Source: Candidatus Harrisonbacteria bacterium
GTDB lineage: Bacteria; Patescibacteriota; Minisyncoccia; UBA6257; 02-FULL-45-10c
NCBI GenBank assembly: GCA_016214655.1
Contig: JACROC010000007.1
Span: 14,785 to 78,784, forward strand
Reading direction: 5' to 3'
DNA length: 64,000 bases
The notes under the pieces were generated by a model. That model saw nothing but the letters and a program-made list of their open reading frames with translations. It was not told the DNA's origin and ran no database searches. Of this stretch, positions 9,294 through 31,257 are shown one piece after another. Both the position numbers and the translations under genes were made by a program. Every line of letters begins with the position of its first letter. Within the stretch, counting starts at the first letter, position 1.

Positions 9294-9333
9294 AGAAACC
9301 CAGGTCGACAACTGGATCAGATTACCTGCCCGC
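9294..9333 (+). repeat. cassette-junction repeat, variant 2 (aacccaggtcgacaactggatcagattacctgcccg)
   Basis: shares CAACTGGATCAGATTACCTGCCCG with copy at 11147; AATCTG/CAGATT-type dyad. Confidence 0.6.
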
Positions 9334-9426
9334 AATGCTAGCGCAAGTGTTGCAGGCGGGGAACCTGTTTGGTTTAAAAAGAAAAAGCCAGTTGTTCTTA
9401 ACAACTGGCAAATATAATGTTCGGCA

Positions 9427-10230
9427 TCAGCCGATAGCAACTTTGGCGTCCGCTTTGTAGAGTTTCTTCTGCTCTTTTAAGTCTTTCGGCCAGCACCTAA
9501 TGACATCTTCAATCATATCGAGGGCGGTGCGAAAGTCGCCGTAAATCGACTGGATGCCAGCATTCAAGCAGAGTGGGTCACCGTCTTCGCCAACAAAGGA
9601 GACAGTCGATTCGTTGCAATATACCTCACCATCCTTTTTGTAGTAACTGTCCTTGCTCTTATCTATGCATCTGGCAAAGGTGAACATAATGCGGCCCGCC
9701 ATAATAAATGTACGAAGTTGGGTCTCGCCAAACTTACCGCTCATTCCTCTCTTATCACATTTGTCAGCCATTTCTCCTAATCCTCGGCGATACACGAGCC
9801 GCAAGAACTTGTCGAAAGTCTGTTGGAGAACATACTTTTGGGCGTTGCAGTAAGTATTAAGCTGGTGCTCGACCCAATCTTGACCCGTTATCTCTTTCAG
9901 CATAAAGCCAAGCGTAGTCTGTACTGCAGAGCCTTGGTCAAGAAGATTGCTCGCTCCGAGGTCTGTAATGTTGGGAACTTCGTGCCCAGTTTCCAACTCA
10001 TAAGCCTGACGGAAATAAACAGCCCGATCATCAGTTCCCGTTCGCAGCTGTTCAAAGGCATCAACCATTAATTCTGGGAGATATGATTCAATACTCCAGA
10101 AATCATACTTCTCATCGTTTGGAATGTTCAAATTCTCGAGGTAGTGAACGAGGAAATTGGCGAAGGCTCGCTGCCCCTTCCATTGTGCAGTAAACCTCTT
10201 TAAGCCGACAACCAGCTCTTTCTTGTGCAT
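9427..10230 (-). CDS. hypothetical protein (cassette gene)
   Basis: 267 aa; ATG preceded by conserved leader and GGAGG. Confidence 0.55.
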   Translation of the reverse strand: MHKKELVVGLKRFTAQWKGQRAFANFLVHYLENLNIPNDEKYDFWSIESYLPELMVDAFEQLRTGTDDRAVYFRQAYELETGHEVPNITDLGASNLLDQGSAVQTTLGFMLKEITGQDWVEHQLNTYCNAQKYVLQQTFDKFLRLVYRRGLGEMADKCDKRGMSGKFGETQLRTFIMAGRIMFTFARCIDKSKDSYYKKDGEVYCNESTVSFVGEDGDPLCLNAGIQSIYGDFRTALDMIEDVIRCWPKDLKEQKKLYKADAKVAIG

Positions 10231-10300
10231 TCGTATTCCTCCTTTTTCAATGAACGTTAACTGCTAAAATAGATTAATAAAAAACTAAAATAAAGTCAAA
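10231..10300 (-). promoter_or_regulatory. conserved cassette promoter and 5'-UTR module
   Basis: minus strand: TTGACT-17-TAATCT then tttagcagttaacgttcattgaaaaaggagg ATG. Confidence 0.6.
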
Positions 10301-10413
10301 TCGCCGGGCGAATTCTCGTTTGATGAGATGTCGTCGTAGAAGATGCCGGGACTTATTTGGTGAGAATATACAATAAAGACCCGATATGAATCGGGTCTAT
10401 TGAAAAAATATCT

Positions 10414-11073
10414 TTACTCCTTACTCTTTGCCAAAATTTCCAGAATCCGCAAAAAGAGATTGATGATGTCGAGATACAAACTAATACATACATCAACCGC
10501 ATTATCAAGCGTGGCCGGGATCTCGCTCGCCCGGTGCATATCGTAACCGATATAAAGCGCAAAAATTCCTGCGGCAATATAGTGAATTACCGTGAACTTC
10601 GCGAGCGCTGGGATAAACAAAGAAAGAATGGACACGACCAGAAGCGCCGTAAGTGCTCCGAAAAGAGCGCCACCAATAGAACGATAAAAATTGGGAAACA
10701 TAAGTCCGGATAAAGCCATTACGCCCGTAACGGCCGCCGTAAGAGTTGCCGCTTCGGAAACGATTCCAGGATACATGACCTGATATTGCGCAAGTGCCGG
10801 TCCGAGTATCGCTCCGAATGGTATCACTACGAGATTATATCCGAGAAAAGAAACCAGTGCTGATCCGCTGGTACTAAGCAAAATACCGAGAAGAGGAAGG
10901 CCGAGACCAACTAAAAGGAACATAAGAATCCCTGGGCGCCAATTCGCTGTCAATTCGGAAACGATATAGGTAGCCACGAAACCCCAAGAGAGAACGCATC
11001 CCATGACAAAGTAGAATGCATTGCGCGACATAGTGTCAGAGCCAGAACGGTCAAATACATCTGCCTTAAGCAT
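10414..11073 (-). CDS. BI-1/YccA-like 7-TM membrane protein
   Basis: 219 aa, seven hydrophobic segments, size and topology typical of the Bax-inhibitor/YccA family. Confidence 0.5.
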   Translation of the reverse strand: MLKADVFDRSGSDTMSRNAFYFVMGCVLSWGFVATYIVSELTANWRPGILMFLLVGLGLPLLGILLSTSGSALVSFLGYNLVVIPFGAILGPALAQYQVMYPGIVSEAATLTAAVTGVMALSGLMFPNFYRSIGGALFGALTALLVVSILSLFIPALAKFTVIHYIAAGIFALYIGYDMHRASEIPATLDNAVDVCISLYLDIINLFLRILEILAKSKE

Positions 11074-11136
11074 CTCTCCACCCCCTTTTCAACGAGCGTT
11101 AACTGCTGATGGATATATTACAAAGAAAAATAAGTA
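11074..11136 (-). promoter_or_regulatory. conserved cassette promoter and 5'-UTR module
   Basis: ccttttcaacgagcgttaactgctgatggatatat on + strand, i.e. leader CAGCAGTTAACGCTCGTTGAAAAGG plus RBS on minus. Confidence 0.6.
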
Positions 11137-11146
11137 AAGTCAAATC

Positions 11147-11180
11147 GCTAAATCAGCAACTGGATCAGATTACCTGCCCG
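11147..11180 (+). repeat. cassette-junction repeat, variant 2
   Basis: aaatcagcaactggatcagattacctgcccgg. Confidence 0.6.
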
Positions 11181-11315
11181 GCCAAGGAACTGAATAGTGA
11201 AGTTATAAAAGAAAAACCTAAACAAAGATGGGTAAAAAATAACTGGGAGTTGCGTTTTTAATTTTTTTTAATTATTATATATATCAGATCTCTTAAATAA
11301 CGTAAGGAGGAAGAA

Positions 11316-11933
11316 TTGAATTTCAAAAAAATTTTTATTCCTTCTGCCCTAGTTATGACCATAGGGCTCACCTCATCCTGTAATCAAGCAGATAAGTCGC
11401 CAGGTCAGTCCGACACACGGCCATCGATAGAAACCCCGACGACTCAGAAGCCAGTGCCACCCGCAACCAAACTTGAAGATCCGGCAAAGAATTCAAAGCA
11501 AGAAAAAACACCTAAGCCACAATCCCAGAATAAACCCGCCGAAAAACCTACTGCCAAAGAAACGCCCCCGCCTTCAGTTGTCGAAAAACCAGTCGATGCC
11601 CCCAAGCCGAAAGAAAATCCGCCGGTAATCGAGCCCGAACCCAAACCCCCGGTTGTAGAAACAACACCCGTCAATCCGCCAGAGGAAATTGTTTTCAAAG
11701 CAACACCAGGAGACGTAACCTTCTTTCACGCGAAACATGGAACGAGGGAAAAACAATGCGCTGTTTGTCACGATACAATATTTCCTAAAGACAAAACAAA
11801 ACCCTTAAATTTTAAGGGGAATGTGCATCAGACGGCGACTACGAATAAAACCTCGTGCGCAACCTGCCATATGCCGGAGGGCAAAGCTTTTGCGGTCAGG
11901 GGAAATTGTATGAAGTGCCATAAGAATAAATAA
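11316..11933 (+). CDS. lipoprotein with C-terminal triheme c-type cytochrome domain (c7/c3-like)
   Basis: TTG start with AAGGAGG RBS; lipobox LTSSC; Pro-rich linker; three CxxCH motifs (CAVCH, CATCH, CMKCH) within 70 aa; terminator 11939-11966. Confidence 0.6.
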   Translation: MNFKKIFIPSALVMTIGLTSSCNQADKSPGQSDTRPSIETPTTQKPVPPATKLEDPAKNSKQEKTPKPQSQNKPAEKPTAKETPPPSVVEKPVDAPKPKENPPVIEPEPKPPVVETTPVNPPEEIVFKATPGDVTFFHAKHGTREKQCAVCHDTIFPKDKTKPLNFKGNVHQTATTNKTSCATCHMPEGKAFAVRGNCMKCHKNK

Positions 11934-12069
11934 AAGATAAGCGGTGGATTAATATCACCGCTTTTTAATATACAAATTTCAGAAAGTTAGGTTGCCCCTC
12001 CCCCTTACTCACTATGTTTTTATAAAATAAAAAACTCCCAACTGCATTGAGAGCAAAAAATAAGAACTG

Positions 12070-30393: not shown

Positions 30394-30483
30394 ATATCTT
30401 TCTGACATCTGACAAATAAGACGCAACACATGACAGATGACTACTAACAATTTACATTTTTTTTTAAAAAAAGTCTAGAAATA

Positions 30484-30510
30484 CGAAAGCCCCAACTGCT
30501 GTTGGGGCCA
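30484..30510 (-). terminator. hairpin terminator after the GC-rich gene
   Basis: agccccaacagcagttggggct plus T-run on minus strand. Confidence 0.45.
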
Positions 30511-30544
30511 CCTGCGAGGACCGCAGGATTTGGAGGGAACTGAG

Positions 30545-30858
30545 TCAGACGACCGCGAGCATCGTGGGGCGATCGGGGATCGCCTTGAAGAAGCCATGGC
30601 CACGGAGGTCCACCCCGTAGTACTTGGCGATCTTCTTGAGCACGCGCCGGCTGACCTTCCGCGGGAAGCGCGCCGCGATCTCATCGCGGACGAACAGTGC
30701 CTGCTCATGGCCGGTGAGCTGCTCCGGCAGCGGCGAGAGCTGCAACCGCACCATGAGCGGCGGCAGCGGCACGATGACGACCGGCTCCTCCACCTTCTTC
30801 CCCTTGGAGATACGAAGGAGATCCAGCAAGCTGCGGCTGATGCTCTTGAGGTTCATGA
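30545..30858 (-). CDS. hypothetical protein in an anomalously GC-rich (about 65%) insert
   Basis: 104 aa from MNLKSISRSLL; strong RBS agagggggtggagtc; palindrome TGAGACAGTAATGTCTCA in its 5' region. Confidence 0.5.
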
Positions 30859-30883
30859 CTCCACCCCCTCTTAACATTCTTGA

Positions 30884-30901
30884 GACATTACTGTCTCACA
30901 T
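30884..30901. promoter_or_regulatory. 6-bp/6-bp palindromic putative operator
   Basis: TGAGACattactGTCTCA between the putative promoter and the RBS of 30545..30858. Confidence 0.4.
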
Positions 30902-30980
30902 CAAAGTACTGATGCCACAATGGATTATTCATCCACCGTAACAATATAAATATAGCATACTTTAATAATTCTGTCAAGTG

Positions 30981-30997
30981 GTCGGACTGCTGGGAAT
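30981..30997 (-). repeat. 17-nt direct repeat of the tRNA-Pro 3' end (att-like)
   Basis: gtcggactgctgggaat identical to 31186-31202 (3' end of tRNA-Pro); the copy continues ..GACCA. Confidence 0.7.
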
Positions 30998-31048
30998 TTC
31001 GCTGCGCTTTTGGCTGGATAGCCCAAAAGCTTGCCGAACCCTTCCGCC

Positions 31049-31125
31049 TCACCCCGACCCCCGCTTAAGACACCTTCGGTTTCTTACGTCGCTTACGCTC
31101 CTATCTTCCTGATACGGGGTGAGGC
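31049..31125. other. long hairpin (10-bp GC stem, 58-nt loop) inside the tRNA-Pro repeat-bounded segment
   Basis: cctcaccccg ... cggggtgagg, followed by a tagttcgattcc T-loop-like sequence. Confidence 0.35.
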
Positions 31126-31186
31126 TAGTTCGATTCCTAAAACAAAAAATAATAAAAACCGAAATTAATTCGGTTTTTATTATTTG

Positions 31187-31257
31187 TCGGACTGCTGGGA
31201 ATCGAACCCAGGCCATATGCTCCCAAAGCATATATACTACCATTATACTACAGTCCG
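31187..31257 (-). tRNA. tRNA-Pro (TGG)
   Basis: CGGACTG acceptor, anticodon loop TTTGGGA, T-arm CTGGG-TTCGATT-CCCAG, discriminator A; terminator aaaaaccgaattaatttcggttttt follows. Confidence 0.8.

Follow-up and report, generated by a model that had tools for sequence, protein, structure and literature searches.

Integron cassettes and the folded attP of the CTX-phage type are small promoter-less units, sometimes without an open reading frame (ORF), that are arrayed beside a fixed site, and integron cassettes are bounded by an imperfect palindrome of about 60 to 140 nt with a conserved structure. The attC recombination site acts in single-stranded form according to the account given in PMC2668188. 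Islands and prophages with tyrosine integrases that enter the T-loop (Islander-type islands; mycobacteriophage Ms6 at the tRNA-Ala T-loop) regenerate the tRNA with sequence carried by the element, as outlined in PMC4383910 and PMC1762012, the Ms6 site being one of the known T-loop attB sites (PMC1762012). A restored tRNA gene together with a displaced 3′ fragment is treated as a recognised signature of integration into tRNA genes in the pertinent passages of PMC4383910 and bioRxiv 10.1101/2020.12.28.424599. Cis-mobilizable elements (CIMEs) are kilobase-sized, derive from integrative and conjugative elements (ICEs) in Firmicutes and are mobilised by a cognate ICE integrating alongside (PMC6323972). 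Tycheposons and the tRNA-seeded islands of Prochlorococcus show repeated integration beside tRNA genes, scattered partial tRNAs and degenerate, integrase-less units (bioRxiv 10.1101/2020.12.28.424599). Here, we compare with these systems a 205-bp insertion in the tRNA-Pro(UGG) gene of Candidatus Harrisonbacteria, a member of the Candidate Phyla Radiation (CPR; Patescibacteria) whose genome was assembled from a metagenome (metagenome-assembled genome [MAG]). The whole 64-kb stretch of that genome that was analysed is referred to as the window.

The insertion is probably a non-autonomous miniature integrative cassette and a member of a family that occupies the same sublocation of tRNA genes in several CPR lineages. 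Such a family of miniature, ORF-less, tRNA-anchored cassettes appears to be undescribed so far. At the tRNA-Pro locus, the 17-nt sequence GTCGGACTGCTGGGAAT occurs in exactly two copies in direct orientation, 205 bp apart from start to start and with 188 bp in between (coordinates are given in Table 1), while the chance expectation for an exact 17-mer to recur within a few hundred bases is about 1e-8. On the tRNA strand, the repeat extends from A58 of the T-loop via the 3′ strands of the T-stem and acceptor stem to the discriminator A73 plus one C. Read in this direction, the distal copy ends ...CAGTCCGA-CCA-CTTGACA and the gene copy ...CAGTCCGA-CAAATAA. An earlier annotation made from the DNA letters alone (the original prediction) had pointed out this direct copy of the tRNA-Pro 3′ end, its CCA-like continuation, and a terminator and GC hairpin in the bracketed segment, all of which are borne out by the present analysis.

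The bracketed segment holds a terminator with a 17-bp stem, an 11-bp GC helix and, in addition, an inverted copy of the T-loop, as GTTCGATTCC (31128-31137) is a perfect inverted match of the tRNA-Pro T-loop at 31198-31207. The insert is a complete ORF-less unit of four parts: a replacement tRNA 3′ end, the terminator, the inverted T-loop and a 130-nt module, referred to as type-1 cargo. Helices of the module comprise the 11-bp GC helix (31046-31056/31115-31125), a hairpin at 31065-31086 and a second hairpin in which 31006-31013 pairs with 31023-31030. No credible ORF was found in 30998-31185, where the sole listed ORFs, at 31049-31243 and 31119-31325 (64 and 68 aa), extend into the tRNA gene.

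Comparison of related tRNA-Pro loci, which the original prediction had proposed as a check for an empty site, provided one. The cation-efflux protein encoded next to tRNA-Pro, used as a query, retrieved L022, a 1.5-kb metagenome contig that was the closest relative obtained; a scan of genome contigs with the same neighbour returned no relative, and look-ups of window proteins by exact sequence gave no record. Gene order in L022 is as in the window, namely, tRNA-Arg(tct), the cation-efflux gene (77% identical), tRNA-Pro(tgg) and a small GC-rich ORF. Its tRNA-Pro is uninterrupted and ends ...GTTCGATTCTCGGCGCTCCGA-CCA-CTTGACAGAATTA, running directly into the promoter. Pairwise alignment of the two loci contains a single clean gap of 205 columns, bounded by GTTCG on one side and ATTCC on the other, and is good again at the distal copy, the promoter and the 3′ flank of the ORF. 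As L022 is uninterrupted and the limits of the gap coincide with the repeat, the window carries a 205-bp insertion, and the distal copy with its CCA represents the gene's ancestral 3′ end. The promoter overlapping this ancestral end has been preserved in the window despite the insertion. The attL/attR signature of an integrative element, as first proposed, therefore stands insofar as it denotes an insertion into tRNA-Pro. The accompanying description as a remnant does not, as the unit is complete and its internal junction is shared behind three tRNAs in three genomes.

The arrangement recurs elsewhere in the CPR. A scan for the T-arm and acceptor sequence of tRNA-Pro, restricted to one genome per species, yielded 19 CPR loci, 17 of which lack a second copy of the tRNA-Pro end; in the other two, L017 (Nomurabacteria) and L019, a second copy lies 121 and 219 nt downstream, respectively. 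When all tRNAs of these loci were checked, the same arrangement was found behind tRNA-Arg in L013 and L001. A motif search located the type-1 module in two more genomes, namely, behind tRNA-Ala in L012, which is also from Harrisonbacteria, and behind tRNA-Arg in L019, a third genome of the CPR. These three modules are 83 to 84% identical over about 130 nt, and a covariance model of type 1 (R1) scores 146 bits in the window, 149 bits in L012 and 130 bits in L019. The start of the cargo beside the inverted T-loop, AGCC(T/G)CACCCCG, is identical in all three. A second cargo type was found behind tRNA-Arg in L013 and behind tRNA-Pro in L017 and L019. As R1 detected nothing beyond its 3 training copies in 216 kb, type-2 cargo has no detectable homology to type 1. 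Further cargo types are present in L001 and in the second of two tandem units in L019. Altogether, the 76 CPR tRNA genes examined yielded about 7 units that are complete and 1 that is partial; the hosts are tRNA-Pro, tRNA-Arg and tRNA-Ala, and tRNA-Ser has the partial copy only.

All units share the order tRNA, hairpin/terminator, inverted T-loop copy, cargo and direct tRNA copy. The direct (distal) copy starts at T-loop position 57 to 60 in all 7 units and ends 1 to 4 nt beyond the discriminator; repeats measure 16 to 21 nt and units 110 to 250 bp. Both ends of a unit match the local tRNA. Indeed, the inverted T-loop copies track the host tRNA in L012, L013, L017 and L019, and the unusual T-loop TCCGATT of tRNA-Ala is mirrored as AATCGGA in its inverted copy. 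A CCA follows the distal copy in L012 but not in L017 or L019. Units also accrete in tandem. At L019 3929-4375, two mini-cassettes stand behind tRNA-Arg(tcg), followed by a gene for a CCA-adding enzyme; their 3′ copy, hairpin and inverted T-loop modules are homologous, while the cargos differ. The partial unit, at L019 90-180, consists of tRNA-Ser(cga) with a hairpin and inverted T-loop only. The occurrence of the same cargo with different host-specific arms suggests modular exchange, for which tandem arrays offer an opportunity.

Conservation extends to the predicted fold of the cargo. RNAalifold, applied to the three type-1 copies, gave 39 pairs, of which 10, distributed over three helices, are changed on both sides. 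Examples include TAAG/CTTA versus TCGG/CCGA versus TGGG/CCCA, and T-A versus G-C in the 11-bp helix. Consensus energy was -55 kcal/mol on the tRNA strand and -47 kcal/mol on the opposite strand, with 0 and 3 A-C mismatches, respectively; single-sequence z-scores were -2.3 and -4.6. The section from the T-loop through the terminator to the inverted T-loop was predicted to form a forked hairpin (DNA fold, -22.3 kcal/mol; z = -6.8) with a 10-bp outer stem, an asymmetric loop and a 17-bp inner stem around the terminator.

Compared with Islander-type islands, the tRNA-Pro unit shows an intact tRNA with a displaced 3′ copy that is identical at 17 of 17 positions and forms a direct repeat starting in the T-loop, an empty site in a relative with the gap bounded by the repeat, and the canonical T-loop sublocation, where the crossover would have taken place. 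In contrast to those islands, it measures 205 bp and contains neither an integrase gene nor any ORF, for which its 188 bp leave no room. It carries instead a structured non-coding cargo that is shared by three tRNAs, and an extra inverted T-loop copy that would form the forked hairpin. The latter, with its 10-bp outer and 17-bp inner stems, may be likened to attC and to folded sites of the CTX type. However, the R''/R' consensus of attC (RYYYAAC/GTTRRRY) is absent, and the outer boxes of the palindrome, GTTCGATTCC and GGAATCGAAC, are T-loop sequence. Unlike integron cassettes, the units are anchored at a tRNA T-loop and have a repeat of 16 to 21 nt rather than 6 nt, and neither an IntI-type integrase nor any other tyrosine recombinase was detected in the 64 kb with Pfam and NCBIfam.

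The insertion lies in the part of the tRNA-Pro gene between the T-loop and the 3′ end. Its replacement 3′ end, which reaches from A58 to the base after the discriminator, keeps the tRNA gene intact, and the original 3′ end, with its CCA and the overlapping promoter, has been displaced 205 bp downstream as the distal copy. Units would be moved by site-specific recombination with a crossover in the T-loop. Since the window and the surroundings of the L012 and L019 units yielded no recombinase gene, we infer an enzyme that is encoded elsewhere and acts in trans. The folded module may be cargo in the form of a small RNA, or it may belong to a folded recombination site.

Several points weigh against this interpretation. 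No recombinase gene was found with Pfam and NCBIfam in the window or beside the L012 and L019 units, a search that covered about 50 window ORFs and 10 from L012 and L019. The fold measures disagree on the strand, as the alignment favours the tRNA strand and the z-score the opposite strand, and the evidence from covariation is thin, with only 3 to 4 sequences per cargo type. L022 comes from a different and only moderately related organism with another tRNA-Pro acceptor stem, and a precise loss instead of a gain is possible. Furthermore, the terminator part differs between units with the same cargo, which would be odd for a single arm borne by the element and would call for modular exchange. Finally, neither an excised circle nor polymorphism within a population was observed.

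The conserved fold of the 130-nt module is compatible with the earlier suggestion that the segment holds a small RNA, and it bears on a different explanation, in which the module is a resident gene for a functional RNA. Such an RNA would use a copy of the T-stem and acceptor strand of the neighbouring tRNA, for example, for 3′ processing or stability, and would be inherited vertically with occasional loss by recombination between the repeats. Such a gene is favoured by the compensatory changes that maintain the fold and by its invariant loops, and in the tRNA direction wobble pairs replace Watson-Crick pairs without A-C mismatches, while several type-2 hairpin loops are of the GNRA type (GGAA in L019; GGGA and GAAA in L013). 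The closing helix, formed by the inverted T-loop copy and the distal copy, likewise co-varies between tRNA-Pro and tRNA-Arg hosts. However, a strong terminator stands between tRNA and module, and neither strand shows a promoter-like site ahead of the module. The presence of one module behind three tRNAs with host-specific ends requires movement or repeated re-creation, and the distribution is sporadic, the unit being missing at 17 of 19 CPR tRNA-Pro loci. Rfam provides no family for it either. For this module and the type-2 modules, covariance models of Rfam 15, searched against the window (E values up to 10) and the unit loci (up to 1), returned only the tRNA itself and matches at chance level. 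Taken by itself, a resident RNA gene is thus rather unlikely.

The integrative cassette that we favour must also be weighed against decay, in which an integrase-carrying island or prophage in tRNA-Pro was deleted to about 190 bp, leaving attL and attR behind. Any island that integrates into a tRNA gene leaves a direct repeat and a displaced 3′ fragment, as set out in the corresponding part of PMC4383910. ORF-less elements in which attL and attR persist go by the name of CIMEs (PMC6323972), and the tRNA-Pro unit likewise has attL- and attR-like ends and no genes for integration or transfer. Its size of 205 bp is also about that of one attP (P' arm plus P arm). The likeness to CIMEs further includes the absence of ORFs, the att-like flanking repeats and the tandem accretion in L019 (PMC6323972). 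The units described here are only 110 to 250 bp long, however, are not accompanied by an ICE and constitute a colinear family rather than a set of deletion products. Independent deletions should leave differing internal junctions, whereas the start of the cargo is identical behind three tRNAs in three genomes, and the unit is colinear over its whole length and occurs as two tandem units in L019. Larger relatives were sought in phage, plasmid and viral collections. The unit had no match by blastn in phage and plasmid collections, and scans of viral contigs with the tRNA-Pro tail and two cargo motifs were equally negative. A metagenome scan for AGCGMAGCG..TCCCAGCAGTCCGA returned two chance matches only, both in coding DNA of other organisms. 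That three genomes have one and the same internal junction makes the decay of a larger element unlikely.

A further alternative is transposition with a long target-site duplication, in which a transposase or a Cas1-like integrase would make staggered cuts about 17 nt apart at the 3′ end of the tRNA gene. Casposons duplicate their target at the 3′ end of tRNA-Pro. Repeats that are short (16 to 21 nt) and derived from the host agree with such a process, which would also leave the tRNA intact without tRNA sequence borne by the element. Yet the boundaries (AAATAATAAA... versus ...GCGCAGCGAA) show no terminal inverted repeats, the length of the repeat varies between 16 and 21 nt, and the host-specific inverted T-loop and the terminator, which lie inside the insert relative to the empty site, are left unexplained. 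Neither cas1 nor a transposase gene was found, and we regard target-site duplication as highly unlikely.

Other candidates were rejected. The plus strand at 30978-30997 complements a mature tRNA 3′ end including CCA, as would the primer-binding site of a retroelement, but no reverse transcriptase gene was found, the CA of this CCA is part of the promoter module CACTTGACA that is also seen at 33544, and the CCA complement is not kept in the L017 and L019 copies. A degenerate convergent tRNA on the plus strand would lack an acceptor 3′ strand, and neither ARAGORN nor Rfam reported one. A hairpin element of the IS200/IS605 type was set aside, though not rigorously ruled out, as no Y1 transposase was seen. 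The GC-rich ORF is not cargo of the insertion, given its place beyond the repeat-bounded block and its presence at the empty site.

Table 1. Features of the tRNA-Pro locus and variant-2 junction copies of the tRNA-His array (window coordinates)
Feature	Position	Strand	Evidence and remarks
tRNA-Pro(UGG)	31186-31257	-	ARAGORN; Rfam tRNA 68.5 bits; gene intact, no encoded CCA after gene
Proximal repeat copy, attL-like	31186-31202	-	Exact 17-mer; functional 3′ end of tRNA-Pro; within 205-bp block missing from L022
Intrinsic bidirectional terminator	31147-31185	-	17-bp perfect stem, 5-nt loop, T-run; not at L022 empty site
Inverted tRNA-Pro T-loop/T-stem copy (GGAATCGAAC on tRNA strand)	31126-31138	-	Complementary 10/10
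Type-1 cargo module, 130 nt, conserved structure	30998-31127	-	Covariance model, alignment, fold
Distal repeat copy (30981-30997, attR-like) with encoded CCA (30978-30980)	30978-30997	-	Displaced ancestral tRNA-Pro 3′ end
Sigma-70-type promoter, TTGACA-17-TATATT with TG	30949-30977	-	11/12 matches; overlaps ancestral CCA end; drives GC-rich ORF
Orphan ORF, GC-rich (~62%), 103 aa	30545-30856	-	Between tRNA-His and tRNA-Pro, outside insertion
tRNA-His	30321-30392	-	ARAGORN, Rfam; anchor of 21-kb cassette array
Variant-2 junction copy	28108-28131	-	
Variant-2 junction copy	24977-25000	-	
Variant-2 junction copy	24583-24606	-	
Variant-2 junction copy	20571-20594	-	
Variant-2 junction copy	16905-16928	-	Nearest to consensus; keeps AATCTGG/CCAGATT flank common to variant 1 and tRNA-His
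Variant-2 junction copy	12666-12689	-	
Variant-2 junction copy	11149-11172	-	
Variant-2 junction copy	9301-9324	-	

Next to the insertion, a 21-kb cassette array (9.3-30.3 kb) is read on the minus strand away from tRNA-His; its genes include those for Bax1-I, cytidine deaminase, MFS, M32 carboxypeptidase, and HD and NYN proteins. The segment 9300-30320 comprises about 20 cassettes, on both strands, most of which are equipped with a TTGACA promoter of their own and with a conserved 5′ leader (CAGCAGTTAACGTTCGTTGAAAAGGAGG). Between the cassettes lie partial, diverged copies of the 3′ end of tRNA-His (variants 1 and 2), with extra GC hairpins at some junctions (24110-24130 and 9325-9360). The tRNA-seeded tycheposon islands are a good analogue for this array and for the tandem units of L019, although tycheposons are kilobase-sized and carry a tyrosine recombinase and replication genes, none of which was found here.

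The original prediction had also linked the array to tRNA-Pro through a likeness of the variant-2 junction repeats to the tRNA-Pro 3′ end. The eight variant-2 copies (repeat family D9) were located where it had placed them; the likeness itself is not above chance. Local alignment of the variant-2 consensus with the tRNA-Pro tail gave a score of 6, a value that 34% of shuffles also attained; with three scoring schemes, P was 0.065 to 0.27 for the two tRNA-Pro copies (the distal copy with its CCA included) and 0.135 to 0.30 for tRNA-His. The similarity thus disappears in statistical alignment, an outcome that had been named beforehand as telling against it. The tRNA-Pro tail ranks 18th among 76 CPR tRNA tails for variant 2, with tRNA-His and tRNA-Gly of the same window ranking higher.

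Multiple alignment of the junctions showed that variant 2 is colinear with variant 1 and of equal length, with the central ~13 nt alone differing. Both variants share the flanks AGTTCTAA...ACCCAGATT, in agreement with the 3′ end of tRNA-His and the bases that follow. They start with AGTTCTAA, a diverged T-loop (tRNA-His, GAGTTCGATT), and most copies of both end ...ACCCA, followed by ...GATT in variant 1 and in the variant-2 copy at 16905; the variant-1 junctions repeat the 3′ end of tRNA-His together with GATT. From its colinearity, equal length and shared flanks it follows that variant 2 is a member of the tRNA-His-anchored junction family. By sequence it is best described as a variant of the tRNA-His-derived junction, which places it outside the tRNA-Pro insertion. 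The original prediction suggested that both tRNAs serve as integration targets, and a single system might conceivably use both; the tRNA-His junctions contain no module like that of the tRNA-Pro unit, with its terminator and inverted T-loop.

Another possible origin of the variant-2 repeats is as relics of tRNA-Pro-type attachment sites, with the array built partly through tRNA-Pro. TTCC(C)AG and CCGAC(C) are common to variant 2 and the tail (about 12 of 16 positions, with two gaps), and the tRNA-Pro genes of L023 to L025 end ...CCGACCCA, like variant 2. This origin is nevertheless hardly credible, given shuffle probabilities no better than those for tRNA-His, the colinearity with variant 1 and its tRNA-His-matching flanks, and the position of every variant-2 copy on the tRNA-His side, 2 to 21 kb from that gene.

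The tRNA-Pro locus has undergone a second, anticodon-loop type of rearrangement in relatives. At L023 905-1150, and also in L024, L025 and L027 (neighbour gene 62% identical), a tRNA-Pro of the window type (acceptor CGGACTG) is split, and its 22-nt 5′ and 35-nt 3′ fragments flank a complete tRNA-Pro with another acceptor (CGGAGTG). The 35-nt 3′ fragment begins in the anticodon stem, and the linker CTAACGGGGTGAAGG of this split is seen again behind the tRNA-Pro of L003.

In the databases, the 103-aa GC-rich ORF matched nothing but its own record, annotated from a Candidatus Harrisonbacteria MAG. Its positional counterpart in L022 (1026-1316) has no BLASTP similarity to it, although the upstream promoter is kept and, together with a 40-nt 3′ flank (CAGTTCCCTCCAAATCCTGCGxTCCTCGCAGGTGGCCCCA), is near-identical around both ORFs. 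The region looks like cargo swapped between conserved flanks. A second promoter, CACTTGACA..TATGCTATATT at 33548-33590(+), shares 83% identity over 48 nt with the promoter at 30949-30980(-). It opens a segment, 33548-34214(+), in which a GC-rich and seemingly non-coding stretch runs into tRNA-Leu(taa). This stretch, which has no Rfam match at the gathering threshold, is probably an unannotated structured RNA.

Besides tRNA-His and tRNA-Pro(UGG), the RNA genes of the window comprise 4 further tRNAs, a transfer-messenger RNA (tmRNA) and a group I intron. The intron (RF00028, 92 bits, 33267-33513) splits a tRNA gene in its anticodon loop (33245-33547[+]), a gene missed by ARAGORN, and an ORF with an HNH-like motif (32785-33159[-]) adjoins it. 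Past the far end of the tRNA-His array lie ORFs of 409 aa (5007-6236[-]) and 300 aa (7135-8037[+]), neither of which has a match in Pfam or NCBIfam; the former has an N-terminal membrane region and stands in a locally GC-richer segment.

Recognised mobile elements are few in the tiny genomes of CPR bacteria, and the ways in which these bacteria exchange and shuffle DNA are poorly understood. A broader reading of the units, which we put forward tentatively and consider more doubtful than probable, is that CPR bacteria hold a new class of ORF-less mini-cassettes of 110 to 250 bp. Their recombination site would be a folded forked hairpin assembled from the T-loop, the 3′ end, the terminator and the inverted T-loop, used as a single strand in the manner of attC or CTX and docking at tRNA genes. 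The cassettes would shuttle a small set of conserved structured RNAs between tRNA genes and between lineages, and the tRNA-His array would be the protein-coding counterpart of the same strategy. For the interpretation of that array, the removal of the link between variant 2 and tRNA-Pro eliminates a false lead. Short exact repeats of tRNA ends are, in CPR genomes, genuine scars of insertion whose architecture can be recognised. Among tRNA-targeted integrative elements, gene-less units of about 200 bp would rank as the smallest kind known, and they would point to a recombinase acting in trans and to one or more new structured RNAs.

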